Of a stretch of 64,000 nt of DNA, positions 13,110-59,687 are shown piece after piece. The DNA comes from a virus, in the IMG/VR virus record IMGVR_UViG_3300022848_000777, positions 32,001-96,000 of that record; one strand, 5' to 3'. How positions within the stretch are numbered: position 1 is the stretch's first letter; every line of letters starts with the position of its first letter. A program made the translations under genes and the position numbers. Below the pieces are notes generated by a model, which searched no databases, was not told the DNA's origin, and was given only the letters and a program-made list of their open reading frames with translations.

Positions 13110-14420
13110 ATGGATACATTCGGAAAGAGATTTGGTTCAAGTTTCCAAATAAAAATTCTATCAGCATTATTATCAGATAGGATATTTTTACAGACTATTT
13201 ATGATATTATAAAAGATGATTATTTCGATTCTGATGCAAATCAATGGATTTTAAGTAAAATATTAACCCACTTTGATAAATACAAACAAATACCAACCTT
13301 AGATGTATTTAAAACGGAATCAGATGCACTTAGTTCTGATATTCTAAGACAATCTGTATCAGATAACCTTAGAAATGTATGGGGTGGATTAGAATCCACT
13401 GAGTTAGAATACATAAAAGAGCAATCACTAGAGTTTTGTAAGAATCAGGAAGTTAAAAATGCTATCCTTGAATCGGTAGGTTTGCTTGAGAGTGGTAACT
13501 ACGAAGAAATTCAATCTAAAATAACCGCAGCTATGAAGGCTGGGCAGGATACTGATATCGGGCATGAGTATAATATTAGTATTGATGAACGTTATGCCGA
13601 TAGTGTTAGGAATGTAATTACAACAGGATGGCCTGCAATTGATGAATTAGTAGATGGTGGTTTCGGAAAAGGTGAATTAATTATCTTCGCAGCACCGCCA
13701 GGAATTGGTAAATCATGGGCTCTTATTAATGTGGGTATGGCTGCTGTCAGAGCTGGAAAAACGGTGGTACATTATACTTTAGAGTTAAACGAGGGATATG
13801 TTGGTCAGAGATATGATGCTGTGTTAACTAATATGGCAGTTACTAATTTGAAATATAACATAGATGATGTTAAATCTAGTATTAAAGAATTATCAGGTGA
13901 GCTTATAATAAAATATTGGCCCACAAAATCAGCATCCGTTAATTCCGTAAGGGCATCGGTTGATAAGCTCATATTACAAGGAAAGAAGCCTGATATCATT
14001 ATAGTTGATTATGCAGATTTACTTAAAGGCAATTCGAAGCGAGAGAAGCATGAAGAAATTGAAGAAGTAGTTGAGGAACTTAGAGGTTTGGCAGGGGAGT
14101 ATGAAGTACCATTATATACAGCATCTCAAATAAATCGTTGTCATAATGTAAATGATAACGTGGAAACTCCAACTGGTGATAAAAGGATTGGTGATGTGGA
14201 GATTGGAGACCAAATATTAACACATAAGGGATTTAAGAAAATAACAAATGTATTCCCAATTGAACGACAACCAACCTATCGTATTAAGCTTAAAGATGGT
14301 AGAGAGATAAATGTTTCAGCAGAACATATGATACCAACCCAATACAACAAAATAAAATCCATAGCAGATGGACTTTCAGTAGGTGAGAAATTATTTGTAA
14401 AAAAGAGTGGAAAAAAGTAA
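13110..14420 (+). CDS. Replicative helicase (DnaB/gp41) N-part fused to split-intein N-fragment
   Basis: AAPPGIGKS Walker A, IIVDYADLL, ASQINR followed by Cys-initiated intein sequence. Confidence 0.93.
   Translation: MDTFGKRFGSSFQIKILSALLSDRIFLQTIYDIIKDDYFDSDANQWILSKILTHFDKYKQIPTLDVFKTESDALSSDILRQSVSDNLRNVWGGLESTELEYIKEQSLEFCKNQEVKNAILESVGLLESGNYEEIQSKITAAMKAGQDTDIGHEYNISIDERYADSVRNVITTGWPAIDELVDGGFGKGELIIFAAPPGIGKSWALINVGMAAVRAGKTVVHYTLELNEGYVGQRYDAVLTNMAVTNLKYNIDDVKSSIKELSGELIIKYWPTKSASVNSVRASVDKLILQGKKPDIIIVDYADLLKGNSKREKHEEIEEVVEELRGLAGEYEVPLYTASQINRCHNVNDNVETPTGDKRIGDVEIGDQILTHKGFKKITNVFPIERQPTYRIKLKDGREINVSAEHMIPTQYNKIKSIADGLSVGEKLFVKKSGKK
14139..14417 (+). mobile_element. Split intein N-fragment (93 aa)
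   Basis: CHNVNDNVETPTG (block A)...YRIKLKDGREINVSAEH (block B). Confidence 0.92.
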
Positions 14421-14439
14421 GGTTTTGCCATGCAGTTAT

Positions 14440-14448
14440 ATACTTATA
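14440..14448 (+). promoter_or_regulatory. Putative late promoter ATACTTATA upstream of endonuclease
   Basis: Recurrent motif. Confidence 0.55.
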
Positions 14449-14463
14449 TAAAAAGGATATAAT

Positions 14464-15555
14464 ATGGCATCAGTAAAGCAAGCTTGGATAACTAGATACG
14501 GAGAAGGGGAAGGTCTTCGTATGTGGGAAATACAAAAAAAGAAATATGGTAAAACACATGATGAATTGAGAACGAAACACGGTAATGATTACGTTGAATC
14601 GTTAGCAAAGAAGAAAAATACATTTTCATTAAAAGGGTGTATTGCCAAATATGGAAAAGTTGATGGTGCTGTTAAGTGGAATGATAGATTAAAAACCAAG
14701 TTAAAAACACAATCTGTTAATTTTAAAAACAAAAAATGGAATAATGGTAGAACCTTAGAATCATATCAACTTAGATACGGGGTAGCGGATGGTTACAGTA
14801 GGTGGGATAAACGGAATAAGCATCAATCCTATATGGCATCAACTCAACGTTATTTGGATGAATTTGGTGAAGATGGGTATGATATAATAAGAAAGATAAA
14901 AGATAACACATCTTTAGAGGCGTATCAAATTCAATACGGTGATGTAGATGGTTTAGTTCATTATAATAAGCACGTTGAACTGATGAAGAACGCATCAAAG
15001 AGGTGTATTGATTATTGGTTAACGTACCATAATGGTGATATTGAGTTAGCAACGCAATCGTTATCAGAGTATCAGAATAATACATCGTTATCATCATTTA
15101 CAAAACGATATGGTAAAGAAGTTGGGTTAGTTAAATATTTAAAATGGGTTGAGGCGGTAACAAAGTATGGATATAAAAGTTATAGTAAGATATCACAGAC
15201 ATTCTGTTGGAATTTGTATGATTCGCTAAATTTATCAATAAATGATACACAATTTTATGAATTAAATAATGAACAATCATTCTACTTTGGTAATAAGTTG
15301 ATTAAGGTTGATTTTAAGTATAAACAAAAGATTATAGAATTCAATGGTGATTATTGGCATGCAAATCCTAATCTGTATAGTGAATCTGATATGATAAAGG
15401 AATATACCGCTAGTGAAATATGGCATCGTGATTCCAATAGAATTGATTTATTAGAAAAAGCTGGTTATGATGTCTTAGTTGTATGGGAATCGGAGTATAA
15501 TGCGAATGGGAGTGATATCATAAACAAATGTAAAAAGTTTTTAGAAAATGAATAA
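14464..15555 (+). CDS. Free-standing homing endonuclease, Vsr/DUF559-like PD-(D/E)XK, with YG-x-x-(D/E)G repeats
   Basis: C-terminal KVDF...IIEFNGDYWH...D..R...GYDVLVVWE; inserted between helicase halves. Confidence 0.85.
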   Translation: MASVKQAWITRYGEGEGLRMWEIQKKKYGKTHDELRTKHGNDYVESLAKKKNTFSLKGCIAKYGKVDGAVKWNDRLKTKLKTQSVNFKNKKWNNGRTLESYQLRYGVADGYSRWDKRNKHQSYMASTQRYLDEFGEDGYDIIRKIKDNTSLEAYQIQYGDVDGLVHYNKHVELMKNASKRCIDYWLTYHNGDIELATQSLSEYQNNTSLSSFTKRYGKEVGLVKYLKWVEAVTKYGYKSYSKISQTFCWNLYDSLNLSINDTQFYELNNEQSFYFGNKLIKVDFKYKQKIIEFNGDYWHANPNLYSESDMIKEYTASEIWHRDSNRIDLLEKAGYDVLVVWESEYNANGSDIINKCKKFLENE

Positions 15556-15688
15556 ACATAATTTAAATCCAGATGATTTTGATTTGGTCGAAATTGAGAG
15601 TATTGAGCTAATCGGCGATTCAGATACTATTGATATTACCGTAGAGGATACACATATGTTCTTCGCTAATGGGGTATATAGTCATAAT
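15548..15688 (+). mobile_element. Split intein C-fragment (47 aa)
   Basis: Blocks F/G ending His-Asn; Ser+1 at 15689. Confidence 0.92.
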
Positions 15689-16018
15689 TCAGGCGCAGAT
15701 GATGATATTATTACAGGTACCAAAATAGCAGGTTCATTCTCAAAACTTATGACTGCTGATTTTGTAGTTTCACTGAGTAGAAAAATTGAAGATAAGTTAG
15801 CAGGTACGGGTCGATGGCATGTTATAAAGAACCGTTTCGGGCCCGATGGTACTACATTACCATCCAAAGCTAATATGTCCAGCGGTAAAATAGAGATATT
15901 TTCAGATAATTCAGTTGATGGTCAAAATACAAAAAAAGATATGAAAGAGGGGGAGACTTTTGTTAGACAGAATTTATTTCAAAAGTATAAAGAAATTAAC
16001 AACAAAGTTAACTTTTAA
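15548..16018 (+). CDS. Split-intein C-fragment fused to helicase C-part
   Basis: DTIDITVEDTHMFFANGVYSHN|SGADDD, then ADFVVSL and KNRFG arginine-finger motif. Confidence 0.93.
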   Translation: MNKHNLNPDDFDLVEIESIELIGDSDTIDITVEDTHMFFANGVYSHNSGADDDIITGTKIAGSFSKLMTADFVVSLSRKIEDKLAGTGRWHVIKNRFGPDGTTLPSKANMSSGKIEIFSDNSVDGQNTKKDMKEGETFVRQNLFQKYKEINNKVNF

Positions 16019-19151: not shown

Positions 19152-19355
19152 ATGGCACTTCGTGGAGAGCAGCATCCTCAACATAAACTAACGGCAAAGC
19201 AAGTAATATCCATTAGAAAGTTGTGGAGAATTGGACATAGGAATCTCAAAGTAATTGCTAGAAACAACGGAGTTACTACTTCTAATATCCGTAGGATTGT
19301 TAGAAACGAGACATGGGTTCATTTGACATTTGGGAAATTTGATGATTATCAATAA
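19152..19355 (+). CDS. Small HTH protein (HNH-associated C-terminal DNA-binding type)
   Basis: RGEQHPQHKLT..QV..IR...IARNNGV...I..IV..ETW. Confidence 0.7.
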   Translation: MALRGEQHPQHKLTAKQVISIRKLWRIGHRNLKVIARNNGVTTSNIRRIVRNETWVHLTFGKFDDYQ

Positions 19356-20152
19356 TGAAAGAAAATAAATTATATGTTGATATTAGCAGGGTGCATATTG
19401 CACCTATTGCTAAATCAATAGCTAAGAGTATTATCATAAAAAAACATTACAGCCACTCATGGACTGCTTGTAGGTATTCATTGGGAATTTATTATAAAAC
19501 AGAAGATGACTCACAATTCGGTGATAGTAAGTTAATTGGGTGTCTTATATATGGATTTCCAGTGGGTTCCAGGGCAGCCACATCTATTTGTGATGGATTG
19601 ACAAAGGATAACGCATTGGAGTTGACCAGATTGTATATAGATGATGGTTACGGTTCTAATATAGAATCATATGCAATGGGTCAGAGTTTTAAATGGTTAA
19701 AAGAACATGATAAGAATATCAAACTACTTTTATCATATGCAGATACGGAGCAAAATCACTTAGGTTCAATCTATCAAGCTACTAATTGGGTATATCAAGG
19801 TACTAATGATATGATAGCACTCATGCCAACTTATGGAATATCATTATCAAACGATCCTTATAATTGGATTCATAGTAGAACTGTATATTCACTTTGGGGT
19901 TCTAGTAACGTAGAACATTTGAAAAAAGAAATTGGTAAACAAGGTCATACCGTATTCTGGAGAAAAATGGAATCACCAAAACATCGGTACATCCAACTGA
20001 TATCACAGAATAAAAAAGAAAAGCGTGAATTGATGAAAAAGTTGAAACATAAAATTTATCCATATCCGAAAAACGCAAGTGATTTTAATAAAGAAATAAC
20101 AACACATACGACATACGAACCTGATTCGGATTTAGAAACTAAATTTTGGTAA
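19355..20152 (+). CDS. Mom-like DNA-modifying GNAT acetyltransferase
   Basis: KHYSH, LELTRLY, NIES, LLSYAD..QNHLG.IYQATNWVYQG, KHRY. Confidence 0.8.
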   Translation: MKENKLYVDISRVHIAPIAKSIAKSIIIKKHYSHSWTACRYSLGIYYKTEDDSQFGDSKLIGCLIYGFPVGSRAATSICDGLTKDNALELTRLYIDDGYGSNIESYAMGQSFKWLKEHDKNIKLLLSYADTEQNHLGSIYQATNWVYQGTNDMIALMPTYGISLSNDPYNWIHSRTVYSLWGSSNVEHLKKEIGKQGHTVFWRKMESPKHRYIQLISQNKKEKRELMKKLKHKIYPYPKNASDFNKEITTHTTYEPDSDLETKFW

Positions 20153-20196: not shown

Positions 20197-22149
20197 ATGG
20201 CATATCAGAACGTATTTTATGATAGTGATACTAGAATAATTCATTCATGGGATGATGTTCTTGGTTACGAAACGAGTAAGTATTCACCATATGCATACGT
20301 AAGAGATGGTAATGGTGCGCATACTTCAATATATGGTGATAGGGTTAAGAAAGTAACCTATTGGAAAGATTACAATCCTAATGATCTATTTGAATCTGAT
20401 GTAAATGAAATTACTAGATTTCTAATAGATAAGTATGGGGAATCTGATGAAGTATCTAAAAATCATTGTACACTTACATTTGATATTGAGGTAGAAATGA
20501 ATTCAGGTTTACCCGATACCACTAAAGCTGAAAATGAAGTAACTGCAATAGCATTTCACGATTCTATAACAAATGACAAAGGTGTTTATGTAGTTCATAC
20601 GGGTAAAGAAATTGATAGGAAAATAAAAGGTGCTAATGTAAAATCCTTTAACACTGAGGCTGATATGCTATCTGCATTTTTAAATAAATGGGTAGATATA
20701 TCGCCAACAATAGTGACGGGTTGGAATATTGATTACTTTGATGTTACATATCTTTACAACCGATTGTGTAATGTATTCTCAACGACTGAGGCTAACAGAT
20801 TGTCACCAATTGGTAAAATAAAGTATAATAAATATAGAAAACGTTACCTTATAGCAGGTGTATCTTGTTTAGATTATATGGCATTGTTTAAAAACTTCAC
20901 ATACACAGAACACCCGAATTATAGACTTGATACTATAGCAACTTTAGAGTTAGGTCGTGGTAAGATTGAATATGATGGTAACTTAGATCAATTATTCAGA
21001 GATGATATTGAAAAGTTTATTGAATATAACCTAGTCGATGTTGAGTTGGTTGTTGATTTAGATAAGAAGTTACAGTTTATTGATTTGGCAAGGGCAATAT
21101 GCCACACAGGCCATGTTGCTTATGAGGATTTTCTTTTCTCTTCAAAGTGGTTAGAGGGGGCTATGCTCACATTTCTACGTAGAAGTGGTAGGGTTGCACC
21201 GAATAAACCCAATAGAGTTTCACTAAAGATAAACTCAGGTAAAAAAGGTGAAAATCGAATCTATTTAGAGAATTTACCGAATCTAACACCCCGATCAGGG
21301 AAACTAAAGATTTGGAAATCGAAATCATCTAAGATATCAGTAGAGTATGATGATATTGATTTCTCTACCAATTCATTTATATTGAAGCACCCATTAAAGG
21401 AAACCTTAAAAAAAGAATGGATACTTAAACTTGATTTTGAGGGGGCTTATGTAAAAGAACCAAAACCAGGACTATATAAATGGGTATATGATTTAGATTT
21501 AACATCAATATATCCCTGTATCATTATGACTATTAACATATCACCCGAAACTCAAGTGGGTAATATAACAAATTATTCCACAGAGGCTTATATGCGGCAT
21601 GATATTTCTAAGTTTGAAATAACAGATATTCATGGTAATATATCAGATCCGATGGATAGGGTTGAGTATGATGCATTCATTACAAAGATGAATCTAAGTG
21701 TAGCTGCTAATGGTACATTATACGACCAAAGTAAAGTTGGTATAATTCCTGAAATTTTGAATGTTTGGTTCGACAAGAGAGTTGAATATAAAGATTTGAT
21801 GAAGAAGTTCGGAAAAGCAGGTGATGATGATAAGTATAAATTTTACAATCAACGGCAATCCGTGCAGAAGATTATGCTCAATTCCCTTTATGGTGTACTT
21901 GGTTTGGAGTCATTTAGATTCTATAATGTGAAAAACGCGGAAGCGGTAACACTTACAGGGCAGACTGTAATTAAAACCACTGAGTTAATAGCTAATAATT
22001 ATTATAATAGTGTAACGGGCGATGCTTATGTAATTCAATTAGAAAATGGTGAAACTGTTAGTATGGGTGGTAATCTACCTGTTACGTTAACTAATGGAAT
22101 GATAAAGAAAGTTTCAGAATTAACAGAAGAAGATGATGTTTTATTATAA
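20197..22149 (+). CDS. Family B DNA polymerase, N-part (exonuclease, motifs A and B) with Hint-like C-terminal tail
   Basis: FDIE, GWNIDYFD, YNLVDV, DLDLTSIYP, KIMLNSLYG, VTLTGQ; lacks YxDTDS. Confidence 0.93.
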   Translation: MAYQNVFYDSDTRIIHSWDDVLGYETSKYSPYAYVRDGNGAHTSIYGDRVKKVTYWKDYNPNDLFESDVNEITRFLIDKYGESDEVSKNHCTLTFDIEVEMNSGLPDTTKAENEVTAIAFHDSITNDKGVYVVHTGKEIDRKIKGANVKSFNTEADMLSAFLNKWVDISPTIVTGWNIDYFDVTYLYNRLCNVFSTTEANRLSPIGKIKYNKYRKRYLIAGVSCLDYMALFKNFTYTEHPNYRLDTIATLELGRGKIEYDGNLDQLFRDDIEKFIEYNLVDVELVVDLDKKLQFIDLARAICHTGHVAYEDFLFSSKWLEGAMLTFLRRSGRVAPNKPNRVSLKINSGKKGENRIYLENLPNLTPRSGKLKIWKSKSSKISVEYDDIDFSTNSFILKHPLKETLKKEWILKLDFEGAYVKEPKPGLYKWVYDLDLTSIYPCIIMTINISPETQVGNITNYSTEAYMRHDISKFEITDIHGNISDPMDRVEYDAFITKMNLSVAANGTLYDQSKVGIIPEILNVWFDKRVEYKDLMKKFGKAGDDDKYKFYNQRQSVQKIMLNSLYGVLGLESFRFYNVKNAEAVTLTGQTVIKTTELIANNYYNSVTGDAYVIQLENGETVSMGGNLPVTLTNGMIKKVSELTEEDDVLL

Positions 22150-22187: not shown

Positions 22188-23015
22188 ATGATTGAATGTA
22201 AAATATGTAATAAGAAGTATAACACCATCACAGCAACTCATTTAAAGACACATGGTATTAGTATGGCAGATTATCGAACTAAATTTCCCAATGTACCAAT
22301 CCAATCAGATGGGATGATTCAGAGGGGAGTTCACTCATTAGAAAATATGATACGAAGGCATGGTGATGTTCAAGGTAATATTAGATGGGAAGATTATAAA
22401 CAAAAACAGGCGTATACGAATACATTTGAATACAAACGTGATATTTGTGGTTGGGATGAGGATCAGTTCAATGCGTATAATAAAAAGAGAGGTAGTTTTG
22501 GTGAGTTGAATGGTAATCATGGGTCATCGTATTATCAGATTTGGATTGAAAAGTATGGTAGAGATGTGGCAGATGATATGAATTTTCAGTTATCTAAACG
22601 TAAAGCTAGACATGGTGAAGATAATGGTAACTATAAGAGATCAAAAAGACCTGATGAACTGAAACGAATGAGTGTATCTGCAATAGAGCGTGTAAAACGT
22701 AATGGGATGCCACATTCATATAATCCAAATTCAATTCCAATTATAGAACGGTATGGGTTGGATAATGGATATACATTTCAGCATGCTGAAAATGGTGGTG
22801 AGTATCAAATACCAGATAATACGTTTTTTGTAGATGGGTATGATAGATCAAATAATGTAGTGATTGAATATGATGAACAACGACATTTTAGAAACGGAGA
22901 ATTGCATCCAAAAGATATATGGAGAATGAACTTGATTATATCGAAATTAAAGTGTGTGTTTGTAAGAATCGATTATAAGGGCAATATAACAAAATATGAA
23001 AATAAAAACAATTAA
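22188..23015 (+). CDS. Free-standing homing endonuclease, N-terminal C2H2/MucR-like finger plus PD-(D/E)XK domain
   Basis: CKIC...HLKTHGIS..DY..KFP; G.xNGN repeats; FVDGYD...VVIEYDE..H; sits between PolB halves. Confidence 0.85.
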   Translation: MIECKICNKKYNTITATHLKTHGISMADYRTKFPNVPIQSDGMIQRGVHSLENMIRRHGDVQGNIRWEDYKQKQAYTNTFEYKRDICGWDEDQFNAYNKKRGSFGELNGNHGSSYYQIWIEKYGRDVADDMNFQLSKRKARHGEDNGNYKRSKRPDELKRMSVSAIERVKRNGMPHSYNPNSIPIIERYGLDNGYTFQHAENGGEYQIPDNTFFVDGYDRSNNVVIEYDEQRHFRNGELHPKDIWRMNLIISKLKCVFVRIDYKGNITKYENKNN

Positions 23016-23909
23016 AAAAACAAACGTCGGCGTAGATTACAACATCTACGTCGACACGTAACTGATTCAGTATTTTATGAAGCAGCTCCATTGGTTAAGG
23101 CTAGAAATCCTAAAATCGATGTTAATTCTGATGAAGAAATGATACCTGCCATTCTTAGTGTTGCAAAAGAAGTGCAAGATCACATCAATAAAACATATGA
23201 TGTGATGGCTAAATCCATGTTTAATACCAGTAACCATAGATTTGACATAAAGCAAGAAACAATCGCAAAGGGTGGATTTTGGGTATCTAAAAAACGATAC
23301 GCTCAGTGGATTATAAATGATAACTCTGTTAATTGTGATAAGTTGGATGTAAAGGGGTTAGATGTAAAACGAAGTTCATTTCCTGTATACTTTAAGGAAG
23401 TGATGTCTGAAATATTATGGTCTATTCTAAAAGATGATGCGAAATTGAACATCGATAAAAAGATATTAGATTATAAAGATGGTATGGAAAATTACTACTA
23501 TGTTGATATTGCAAAGAATTCAGCAATTACGGATATGAGTAAGCATTTATTTAAAAACCAAGCTCTTGGTGAGTTTCAAAAGGGAACACCCGCTCACGTT
23601 AAAGCAGCAATAACTTATAATCAATTATTAAAAAAGTTCAATACTGCTTTTAAATACGAACCAATTAAAGATGGTGATAAGGTTAAATGGGTGTATTTAA
23701 AGAATAATCCATTGGGATTGAATGGGGTTGCATTGAATGGGTATAATGATCCTGATGAAATAATTGAGTTCATTAAAACCTACATAGATTTCGAATTAAT
23801 TTGGGAAAAAGAACTTCAAAATAAATTAGATGATTTCTATGATGCAATGAAATGGGATTTACCAAACCCAAACTTAGATAAAGCAGCAGAGTTTTTCGAC
23901 TTTAATTAG
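22996..23909 (+). CDS. Family B DNA polymerase, C-part; needs a +5 nt skip (net frame change) at 23056-23063
   Basis: 22996..23061 encodes MKIKTIKKTNVGVDYNIYVDT*; another frame from 23061 reads TDSVFYEAAPL...SKKRYA...KGLDVKRS; together they give YVDTDS. Confidence 0.85.
23026..23055 (+). other. 12-bp RNA hairpin ending immediately before the ACG-TAA break
   Basis: GTCGGCGTAGAT / TACAAC loop / ATCTACGTCGAC: 11 Watson-Crick pairs plus 1 G-U. Confidence 0.85.
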
Positions 23910-24675: not shown

Positions 24676-25887
24676 ATGGAGTTTTGGGATAGTACGCCAG
24701 ACAAACCTGAGTTTGTTTTTGAAGATCAAAAGAGGTTGTTAATTGAGAATATGGATTACTTATCCACTATGACGGTAGAGGAACAAACTCTATACAAAAA
24801 GTGGGTAGAGTTGCAAGAGGAAGTAATGATGGTTAATAAATCTCATATTACTGAATTATACGATTCACAATGGAATCCTACTGACATCAATGACGTTGAA
24901 CAAACGGTAAAAGAAATTGAAAATATTGATCCGTATGTTCAAATCGTAGATGATCCGAATGATTCAACTCAATGGTCTTATCTTAGAAAAATGATTCATT
25001 CTATGAGTTTTGTAGCAAATCCAGGCCGCAACGTTAAAGTTAATGTAAAGGATAGGGTTAGTGGTAAACTGTTAGGTCAGATATCATTAGCATCTGATGT
25101 TACTTCAATGGCGGCACGGGATAATTACATAGGGTGGACACGTGATGATCGGTTTAAGAAAGGTAAGTTAAACCACACATCTATAGCATCAACTATAGTA
25201 TGTACTCAACCGTTGGGTTATAACTTTTTGGGTGGTAAACTTATCGCAGCTATGGCTACTGTTTCAGAGATTCGTGATTATTGGAAATCTAATTACGGTC
25301 AAACTTTGATAGCAGTGGGTACTACATCTCTATATGGAATACATTCGCAGTATAATGGTATACCACATTTCAAAACAGTTGGGGAATCTGCAGGTAAGAT
25401 ATCAATTAAACCTGATGATAAGTTCTACGATCCGTGGCATCAGTGGTTAAAAGAAAACCATAGTGAGTGGTATGAGACAAATATAACCGAAGAAAGAGCA
25501 CGTAATGGTGAAAGTATGGGTTATGATCGAAATGGGCCTGTGAGTGGTATTAAACAAAAGATACTATCAAAAATACTTAAAGAGTGTGGTATCAAACAAT
25601 CTGAATATCATCATGGATTTCATAGGGGGGTGTATTTGGCAATGATGTATGATAATGGGAATGAATTTCTTTGTGATACAATCAATGAAGATGATTTGGT
25701 AATGAAGAAGAAGTTTATCGAAGGTATTGATTATATTACTAAATGGTGGAAGCCAAAAGCAATACGCAGATATAAGAAATTACATTCAGAGGGTAGATTG
25801 AAACCAGATCATCTATTTTATGGTGATGGTATTGGAAAGGATTGGGAGACATTTAAAAAAGAACGGTTAAAAGAAATAGGTAGATGA
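24676..25887 (+). CDS. DUF4338 / DruA-like protein
   Basis: PGRNVK, GQISLASD..ARDNYIGW, QPLGYNFLGGKLIA, TTSLYG..SQY. Confidence 0.7.
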   Translation: MEFWDSTPDKPEFVFEDQKRLLIENMDYLSTMTVEEQTLYKKWVELQEEVMMVNKSHITELYDSQWNPTDINDVEQTVKEIENIDPYVQIVDDPNDSTQWSYLRKMIHSMSFVANPGRNVKVNVKDRVSGKLLGQISLASDVTSMAARDNYIGWTRDDRFKKGKLNHTSIASTIVCTQPLGYNFLGGKLIAAMATVSEIRDYWKSNYGQTLIAVGTTSLYGIHSQYNGIPHFKTVGESAGKISIKPDDKFYDPWHQWLKENHSEWYETNITEERARNGESMGYDRNGPVSGIKQKILSKILKECGIKQSEYHHGFHRGVYLAMMYDNGNEFLCDTINEDDLVMKKKFIEGIDYITKWWKPKAIRRYKKLHSEGRLKPDHLFYGDGIGKDWETFKKERLKEIGR

Positions 25888-31292: not shown

Positions 31293-32209
31293 TGAAAGAA
31301 AAGTATAGTAAACATTTAGAGGGTAATACAACATATACCGCATACATACCGCATGGTGTCTCAGCACAATTCAAACCAATACCTCACCTATGTGATGAGT
31401 ATTTAGAAGTGATGAAACTAAAAGAAAAGTTAGGTATAATTCTTAAAGACTTTGTAATTTTATTTAACAATAGAAATATTAGAAGAAAGCAGCCAGGAGA
31501 TTTAATACTAGCGTATAAGGAATTTTGTGATACCTTACCAAAAGAACAATCAGATAAATGTGTTTTACTAATGCATACTGAGCCTGTTGATATGAATGGT
31601 ACTGATATATTATCAATAGTAGATATGCTCTGCCCTGATTATGATGTTGTATTTACAATGACAAAATATGATACTCAGAATCTTAATCGTTTATATAATT
31701 TAGCAGATGTCACTTTAAACATTTCTTCAAATGAGGGTTTTGGATTGGCAACTGCTGAATCATTAGCATCAGGCACACCTATAATTGTTAACGTAACTGG
31801 TGGATTGCAAGATCAGTGTGGGTTTACTGTCAATGGTGAGTATTTGAATAAAATTGATTATGTGAATAAACCATCCCTGCATGATATAAAAAACCTACCT
31901 CATAATTTGAGTTGGGGTCGTTGGGTGAATCCAGTATGGCCGACAAACCGATCACTACAGGGATCACCCACTACACCTTATATTTTTGATGATAGGTGTT
32001 CATTTTTAGATGTTGCTAAGGCATTGCGAAAATGGTATGATACCGATGAAAGTGTAAGAATTGAATGTGGTATTGAGGGATCTGAATACGTAAAATTAGC
32101 AGAAGTTGGAATGAGTGCAGATCTTATGGGTGATAGATTTATAAATGCAATGGATACCGTTCTAAATGAATGGAAACCCAAAAAATCTATAGTAATTTGG
32201 AAAATATGA
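31292..32209 (+). CDS. GT4 glycosyltransferase, C-terminal domain
   Basis: YIPHG, NRNIRRK, EGFGLATAESLASGTPII; TAATG coupling. Confidence 0.85.
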   Translation: MKEKYSKHLEGNTTYTAYIPHGVSAQFKPIPHLCDEYLEVMKLKEKLGIILKDFVILFNNRNIRRKQPGDLILAYKEFCDTLPKEQSDKCVLLMHTEPVDMNGTDILSIVDMLCPDYDVVFTMTKYDTQNLNRLYNLADVTLNISSNEGFGLATAESLASGTPIIVNVTGGLQDQCGFTVNGEYLNKIDYVNKPSLHDIKNLPHNLSWGRWVNPVWPTNRSLQGSPTTPYIFDDRCSFLDVAKALRKWYDTDESVRIECGIEGSEYVKLAEVGMSADLMGDRFINAMDTVLNEWKPKKSIVIWKI

Positions 32210-55177: not shown

Positions 55178-56660
<1,483 letters not shown>

Positions 56661-58192: not shown

Positions 58193-58663
58193 ATGAAAAA
58201 AATTGTATATTTCGACATGGATGGCGTACTAGTCGATTTCAAATCCGCCATTGATAAACTAAAAATCAGAGATGAACTTATCGTTCAAAAATATGGAGAT
58301 GATGTTGATAATATACCTGGCATTTTCTCAATGATGGAACCGATTGTGGAAATGGTTGATCTATTCAACCGTATGGTATGTGATGATAAATTCGATTGTT
58401 ATGTACTTTCTACACCACCTTGGGGCAATCCCTCTGCTTGGACTGACAAACTAATTTGGATTAAAAAATACCTTCCTCTAGCTCACAAACGACTAATACT
58501 ATCACATAATAAAAACCTATGTGCTGGTGATTATTTGATAGATGATCGAACGGCAAATGGGGTAGGTCAATTCAAAGGTAAACTTATTCAGTATGGTGCA
58601 TCTGATTTCCAAAACGCATCTCACGTCGAAGATTATATATATAGCAATGAAGAAGCATATTAG
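58193..58663 (+). CDS. HAD 5'(3')-deoxyribonucleotidase
   Basis: FDMDGVLVDF, LST.P, DK..W, LIDDR. Confidence 0.88.
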   Translation: MKKIVYFDMDGVLVDFKSAIDKLKIRDELIVQKYGDDVDNIPGIFSMMEPIVEMVDLFNRMVCDDKFDCYVLSTPPWGNPSAWTDKLIWIKKYLPLAHKRLILSHNKNLCAGDYLIDDRTANGVGQFKGKLIQYGASDFQNASHVEDYIYSNEEAY

Positions 58664-59687
58664 TTACCCAAAAATTCCTCAATTTAGAAACATAGTTTCA
58701 AATATTAATAGAGAAGTTGCATTTACTGGCTTAGATGCAAATGGTGATGCTATTTACGATCCATCAATTAAAAAACCCACTTTAACATTTAAAGGAACCG
58801 TTAAATTACATGGAACTAATGCAGGTGTTTGTTTTAATTCTGAAAATGGATTTTGGATACAATCCAGAGAGAACATAATTACAGTTGAAAAAGATAATGC
58901 TGGTTTTGCATTTTTTGCAGAAGGCTATAAAATACAACTATGTTCTTTATTAGATGATTTAATTGATGAAAACCAAATAGACACTAAAATATATACGGTT
59001 TCCATTTATGGTGAGTGGGCAGGAAAGGGTATTCAAAAAGGTGTGGGTATATCTCAATTAGAGAAAGCATTTTATGTGTTTGGTGTGAAAATATCCAAAA
59101 CAAATGATCCTAAGTTTAATGCATATTGGATTGATTCAAGTAATGTTAGAAATGTAGAATATCGAATATTCAACGTAGAAGATTATGAAACATATTCTGT
59201 TGATGTAGACCTTAATATGCCGCAATTGGCTCAAAATAAGTTTGCTGAGATAACTAATACGGTAGAAGATGAATGTCCAATATCTAAGGCGTTTGGTATT
59301 GATAATGGATTAGGTGAGGGTGTCGTATGGAGTACTGAATACAAAGGAACCGTTCATAGATTTAAAGTAAAGGGTGATAAGCATTCAGTAACAAAAGTTA
59401 AAAAGCTTGCCAGCATCGATGTCGAAAAGTTAAACTCAATTCAGGATTTTGTTGAATATTCTGTTACTGAAAATAGATTTAATCAAGCCATCGAAATCGT
59501 TTTTGGTAAGGAACCATTGGATGTAAGAAAAATGGGTGATTTTATAAGGTGGGTTGTTAATGATATTTCATCAGAAGAAATGGACACAATGATAAAAAAC
59601 GGATTAGAGCCGAAAGATGTGAATAAGTACATATCTAATAAAGTTAGAGAAATGTTCTTTGAAGCACAAAATTCACGTGAATTTTAA
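58647..59687 (+). CDS. Rnl2-family RNA ligase
   Basis: Start MKKHISYPKI (ATG 58647); KLHGTN motif I, QSR, YGEW.G.GIQ, GEGVV, FKVK. Confidence 0.85.
   Translation: MKKHISYPKIPQFRNIVSNINREVAFTGLDANGDAIYDPSIKKPTLTFKGTVKLHGTNAGVCFNSENGFWIQSRENIITVEKDNAGFAFFAEGYKIQLCSLLDDLIDENQIDTKIYTVSIYGEWAGKGIQKGVGISQLEKAFYVFGVKISKTNDPKFNAYWIDSSNVRNVEYRIFNVEDYETYSVDVDLNMPQLAQNKFAEITNTVEDECPISKAFGIDNGLGEGVVWSTEYKGTVHRFKVKGDKHSVTKVKKLASIDVEKLNSIQDFVEYSVTENRFNQAIEIVFGKEPLDVRKMGDFIRWVVNDISSEEMDTMIKNGLEPKDVNKYISNKVREMFFEAQNSREF

Follow-up and report, generated by a model that had tools for sequence, protein, structure and literature searches.

The replicative polymerase gene polB of the salt-lake phage studied here is split into two genes, and the second of these carries a short insert which interrupts the invariant active-site motif YxDTDS. 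Comparison with about thirty related phages makes it very probable that ribosomes cross this insert by a hop of the peptidyl-tRNA driven by an RNA hairpin lying immediately upstream, and that hairpin and insert belong to a mobile endonuclease cassette. This cassette resembles that of T4 gene 60/MobA, to which it is unrelated and compared to which the hop is far shorter. Very few natural cases of programmed bypassing are known. The element described here occupies only some 40 bases and is available as 32 natural variants together with natural controls lacking the insert. The variants directly test the proposal that refolding of the exiting mRNA drives bypassing, as well as how much pairing at the landing codon matters, and they suggest a way for a homing endonuclease to settle in an active-site motif with neither an intron nor a working intein to remove it.

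The split polB locus and its hairpin

The window, the whole stretch of DNA that was analysed, comprises 64,000 nucleotides (positions 32,001 to 96,000 of IMG/VR record IMGVR_UViG_3300022848_000777) of a 174,750-base phage genome with a single polB and no second copy; coordinates are those of the window and the features of the locus lie on its + strand. The N-subunit gene (20197–22149; 650 aa; PF03104 and PF00136) encodes the exonuclease and motifs A and B and ends in a 43-aa tail (22018–22146), missing in unsplit relatives, which is similar to the latter half of an intein N-fragment. It is followed by a free-standing putative homing endonuclease gene (22188–23015), assigned by motif only to the Vsr-like/EDxHD type, which shares 20 nt with the leader ORF of the C-subunit. 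The leader (22996–23061) starts at ATG 22996 and contains 21 codons, the last specifying Y-V-D-T, before a TAA. The proposed take-off codon ACG (Thr; 23056–23058) is thus immediately 5′ of this stop (23059–23061), which overlaps the proposed landing triplet ACT (23061–23063) by one base, and reading would resume with GAT, the codon of the catalytic Asp, and continue through the remaining C-subunit with its palm and thumb (23064–23909; PF00136). The gap separates YxD from TDS, and the motif resumes 5 nt on with GAT TCA. This is the layout described in the original prediction, with one correction: the codons for take-off and landing, both Thr, differ in their third base (ACG/ACT) and are synonymous rather than identical. 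Among the 27 tRNA genes there is a single tRNA-Thr, with anticodon UGU, and since the nearly full tRNA set (genome positions 130937–139810, outside the window) mostly provides one U-starting anticodon per four-codon box, this one tRNA may read both ACG and ACT.

The insert is not an assembly slip. Over its full length the window is matched by a contig at depth 13.7, which may be its source; a 2019 contig from a different sample is identical over 23041–23236 (with 18 bases 5′ of the gap, too few for bridging); and 47 other contigs carry this design.

The C-subunit is 69–77% identical to its 80 closest viral relatives, in which polB is unsplit where the region is in view (L031, whose sequence starts at the motif, was not usable for this count). 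The exception, L053, has the same split with a GIY-YIG endonuclease; its stop is TGA, and changes in its hairpin compensate one another. By identity the closest relative is L487 (79%), whose landing triplet is ATT. A Mom-like DNA modification gene (19355–20152) precedes polB, and a DruA-like gene (24676–25887) lies after the clamp, as it does in relatives. SD-like sites are modestly enriched in the genome (24/115 against 8.5 expected), which does not fix the host, and a scan of genome contigs for a host gave no PolB match; a Bacteroidetes single-cell match (L500) was rejected as not being PolB.

The 12-bp hairpin predicted at 23026–23055 was also borne out. Its arms (23026–23037 and 23044–23055) enclose a 6-nt loop, include one G-U pair and close on the last base of the Asp codon, immediately 5′ of ACG. 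Genome codon usage agrees that the stem is built from unusual codons: GTC accounts for 5% of Val, GGC for 5% of Gly, GAC for 7% of Asp and ATC for 14% of Ile codons. The hairpin has a z-score of −3.42, with none of 200 shuffles equally stable, and 300 synonymous recodings of the leader yielded no fold of equal stability. Mean MFE is −20.7 in 20 elements, compared with −6.2 for the corresponding DNA of 40 relatives in which polB is unsplit (p about 4e-10).

Insert-bearing relatives, natural controls and mobility

Pattern scans identified the 5-nt design in 24 distinct sequences, the window included, and eight further variants came from a protein search with the DNA fetched and from one relaxed scan, giving 32 distinct elements. 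To guard against circularity, scans were repeated without an imposed take-off codon, stop or gap length: among the matches listed, every true PolB match with a gap read Thr codon-stop. The protein search likewise set no stop as a condition. Two loose variable-gap scans returned mostly chance matches among those listed. L091 was a chance match, and an apparent 2-nt gap in L190 and L225 proved spurious, the polymerase there being unsplit and its motif F-G-H-T-D-S.

The gap measures 5 nt in 27 elements, 6 in two and 7 in three. The take-off codon is ACN in every case (16 ACG, 9 ACT, 6 ACC and 1 ACA), the next codon is always a stop (17 TGA, 13 TAA and 2 TAG), and the codon of the catalytic Asp follows the extra bases in all 32. 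Because the three gap lengths cover all three frames, only take-off from Thr and resumption at Asp fits every element. The landing triplet is ACN in only 25, the others being ATG (three), ATA, ATT, GCT and TCA, and only 8 of 20 clusters have the same codon at take-off and landing. Six of the seven non-Thr landing triplets are one G-U wobble from Thr; the seventh, in L489, is TCA, a poor partner for tRNA-Thr. The landing triplet drifts and the take-off codon never does, which indicates that the Thr residue comes from the first codon and leaves the landing triplet free to drift, mostly to G-U near-matches.

A hairpin is present in all 32 elements. In nine aligned copies with the same loop, 100% of cells pair and 5 of the 12 pairs change on both sides; no shuffle out of 500 matches the covariation score and slid controls reach 17–44%, counts which are inflated by the relatedness of the sequences. 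Other elements have longer stems, with quite different upper parts on the same base. In all 29 folded elements the loop lies at least 12 nt from the take-off codon, and in 27 the stem closes on the Asp codon. G-U pairs, and a sense strand more stable than its complement in 18 of 20 cases, indicate that selection for the hairpin acts on the transcribed strand. It is the only structure found by folding: the folds show no intron core, bulge-helix-bulge or conserved structure 3′ of the gap, and neither a take-off stem-loop nor a mini-SD occurs in elements with 5–7 nt gaps. Only L488, with a gap of 43 nt, has a stem-loop in the gap. This sister of L081 (L488:250–295; one contig only) has the same upstream hairpin, and its 43-nt insert is bounded by matching GAT triplets and holds its own stem-loop with a stop in the loop; its appearance is that of a longer bypass of the gene 60 type occupying this site.

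Annotation obscures these genes. A database protein (L486:161–1111) has been called by reading the TAG of the element as Gln, and in other copies the predicted start is a GTG, a TTG or a codon farther downstream. Standard gene calling truncates insert-bearing polymerases, which lose their catalytic motif.

Natural controls are provided by 21 split C-subunits in which the same leader is in frame with the motif and there is no insert. Comparison shows the predicted hop product to be equal to this natural protein. Three of them were read as DNA: the same N-tail is present and the hairpin is absent (−3 to −6 kcal/mol). The hairpin therefore goes with the insert, since insert-bearing copies have the stem and copies without the insert have none, and the translation start, the split itself and the amino acids of the leader are all removed as reasons for the stem. 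The original prediction had proposed that the hop gates production of active polymerase. This is unsupported: close relatives make the same subunit without an insert, so that the hop seems to mend the damage done by a selfish insert and not to serve control.

The Lys-rich leader also occurs in C-subunits without insert, so that its presence is no evidence for a nascent-peptide stimulator of the gene 60 kind; derivation from an intein strand accounts for it better. It opens with a short basic strand, missing in unsplit genes, like that of an intein C-fragment. The profile of the N-subunit tail matches the intein structures 2lcj (E 0.0013) and 4e2u, a likeness at the level of fold only, and PF14890 was found in 4 of 18 tail members; a search with the tail alone returned only the window's own protein. 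Alignments of tails and leaders contain no N-terminal Cys or Ser, no block B His, no C-terminal His-Asn and no +1 nucleophile. As the residues for splicing are missing, the enzyme is probably a two-chain complex. Prediction of a complex between tail and leader of the L477 pair supported their pairing weakly, with a score of 0.32 (best control 0.01), contact agreement of at least 69% and a partner pLDDT of at least 51. Of 80 solved pairs 58 attain this mark, as do 2 of 110 mismatched ones, and a pass at so low a score is wrong in most cases when the interaction is not already likely. The score may be due to likeness to solved inteins.

The YxD/TDS site is a known target for homing elements, since many viral PolBs carry inteins there, among them true split inteins in other phages (L390, L442 and L412). 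In L412 a repeat array and a TnpB-like ORF lie upstream of the intein C-fragment. Within the window, a DnaB-type helicase gene (13110–16018) is also fractured, by an apparently intact split intein with Cys at the N-part and His-Asn-Ser at the C-part; a second Vsr-like endonuclease gene (14464–15555) lies inside it, with a hairpin over its start.

The polB-associated endonuclease retains invariant D, E, H and D residues in 12 aligned copies; it gave no match to a nuclease family, with 3r3p reached only at E 0.34. A GIY-YIG gene occupies the same slot in L053 and L483, and in several copies only 0–30 nt separate the two polB halves. Inserts persist with frames intact after decay or loss of the endonuclease (L081, L084, L112, L122 and L126). 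Insert-bearing C-subunits are under purifying selection: dN/dS is 0.04–0.11 between close pairs and up to 0.23 in others, and downstream frames are intact in all long contigs. The distribution of the insert is patchy. On a quick tree built from 80 C-subunits, genes with the insert, split genes without it and unsplit genes intermingle. The hop label must change 17 times, and well-supported branches force at least 11 of these changes, which fits repeated spread and loss of the element. By analogy with T4, the earlier suggestion that the insert protects its site from endonuclease cleavage is plausible. It is weakened by L477 (3501–3580), where a split polB with an intact-looking endonuclease has no insert; the unusually C/G-ending motif codons of L477 are possibly another route to cleavage avoidance.

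The proposed ribosomal hop and its alternatives

We propose that the ribosome, having started at ATG 22996, opens the hairpin and comes to a pause in which peptidyl-tRNA-Thr occupies ACG and the stop lies in the A site. About 12 nt of mRNA 5′ of the P site lie inside the ribosome, so that the loop would just be emerging. The stem would then re-zip and push the ribosome forward, the tRNA would release and re-pair 5 nt on at ACT, and decoding would resume at the catalytic Asp to yield a single chain with YVDTDS. This C-subunit would associate with the N-subunit, the intein remnants, which do not splice, probably acting as the clasp. The tail, endonuclease, leader, hairpin and insert together would form a homing cassette spreading between phages, whose insert probably spoils the endonuclease's own target. 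The programmed 5-nt hop that rebuilds YxDTDS in response to a hairpin, as first proposed, is in this form well supported by the comparison, with synonymous rather than identical codons and shorn of its gating role.

Part of this scheme has experimental precedent. In 70S lysates an upstream 12-bp hairpin drives +1 shifts at a stop codon, an effect seen only without RF2 (PMC6321510), which implies that something further must overcome competition with release factor. Pairing of the exiting mRNA has been proposed as the driver in gene 60 (bioRxiv 2024.12.09.627546). We lean, with a confidence only somewhat better than even, towards regarding the polB elements as natural bypasses of a minimal class: their main signal would be a hairpin directly beside the P-site codon, hops of 5–7 nt would reach even non-synonymous triplets, and efficiency would suffice to supply a replicative polymerase.

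Four other explanations were weighed, all of them far less probable. The one which survives best, itself improbable, is termination followed by reinitiation: the 21-aa leader would be released and the C-part restarted at the codon overlapping the stop, giving a three-piece enzyme. An ATG, GTG or TTG does occur at or just before the landing site in 14 of the 32 elements, including the three with ATG as landing triplet. However, the other 18, the window (GTA) among them, offer no usable start, the catalytic motif would be cut in two, and leader and motif belong to one chain in the natural subunits without insert.

Marginally weaker is the alternative, raised in the original prediction, of RNA excision, by which a nuclease would remove the 5–7 bases beside the hairpin and a phage ligase rejoin the mRNA. 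The genome does encode the RtcB (55184–56569) and Rnl2-type (58593–59687) ligases named there, and neither occurs in five 87–97% complete relatives with unsplit polB. These genes are nevertheless 32 kb away, and their link with the insert rests on one genome; no RtcB was found in the other insert-bearing records, which is uninformative as these are only 16–31% complete fragments. Excision needs no stop, yet every element has one, of three kinds, and the piece to be removed varies in length and sequence. Nor does the cut have an intron core or conserved structure on its 3′ side, and a Thr-like landing triplet is kept in most elements. With the constant stop and the gaps of 5, 6 and 7 nt left unexplained, we consider excision unlikely.

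A transcriptional jump, in which the hairpin, as it forms on the nascent RNA, drives RNA polymerase past the insert and leaves it out of the mRNA, has still less in its favour. It would suit a stem whose selection acts on the transcribed strand and which is directly followed by a short repeat, but that repeat provides only 2–3 nt for realignment, and the constant in-frame stop and codon-phased boundaries would be unexplained. A dead allele or a simple −1 frameshift is largely excluded: a −1 shift joins the frames in the 5-nt cases but would add two residues to an invariant motif, lacks a slippery site and cannot account for gaps of 6 or 7 nt, while a dead gene is at odds with dN/dS near 0.1, the intact frames, the covarying stem and the lack of another polymerase.

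Comparison with known systems

A literature search, which left most subscription papers outside its reach, found no report of the polB element. Its closest counterpart among those systems we compared is the 50-nt bypass of T4 gene 60, which belongs to the MobA homing cassette (PMC7026636; bioRxiv 2022.08.31.505936). In both, an essential replication gene is split by a free-standing endonuclease gene, the second ORF has acquired a new N-terminal leader overlapping the endonuclease end, the gap lies inside an invariant motif with a stop right after take-off and with synonymous take-off and landing codons, and the spread is patchy. The polB element is not, however, a member of that family, from which it also differs in sequence. 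The T4 host gene is a topoisomerase gene and MobA an HNH endonuclease, in contrast to PolB and a Vsr-like or GIY-YIG enzyme here; the gap is 5–7 nt rather than the 20–50 of gene 60 and its homologues; the take-off stem-loop and the mini-SD of the gene 60 gap are both missing; and landing tolerates non-synonymous triplets, unlike in gene 60. The 5′ hairpin is conserved here, whereas the 5′ stem-loop of the gene 60 family is not (bioRxiv 2022.08.31.505936).

The 10-nt bypass in Streptomyces phage Hau3, which lies in its terminase gene (PMC10732093), is likewise a short gap in a phage gene, with a 5′ stem-loop as proposed stimulator and a slow codon in the A site. It differs in its rare UUA trigger, its proposed regulatory role, the involvement of an SD and the absence of an endonuclease cassette. 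Among short bypasses, Hau3 and the synthetic stop-hops come nearest to the polB element; its architecture is that of fractured genes. In the fractured genes with split inteins (Dassa 2009, PMC2677866), as here, the break surrounds a free-standing Vsr-like or GIY-YIG endonuclease gene, ORFs overlap and the endonuclease is lost in some copies; the split gp43 of Aeromonas phages and Aeh1 nrdA/mobE are kin of this kind. The polB intein parts differ in having no splicing residues, leaving a two-chained enzyme, and no recoding is described in that paper. The byps of Magnusiomyces mitochondria (Lang 2014, as covered in PMC7026636 and PMC5009743) are also short mobile inserts rendered harmless by hopping; according to these accounts they rely on a codon without assignment and on a hairpin within the gap itself, whereas the polB element has a true stop and a hairpin before it.

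Finally, two laboratory systems share features of the polB element. The synthetic stop-hops of +5 and +6 (Weiss 1987, as summarized in PMC5009743) have the same geometry, a Thr codon, a stop and an overlapping second codon, and in the upstream-hairpin +1 shifting (PMC6321510) the hairpin abuts the E site, as it does here. As far as those accounts describe them, both are constructs that operate at a low level, whereas the polB case is natural, conserved and needed for an essential enzyme.
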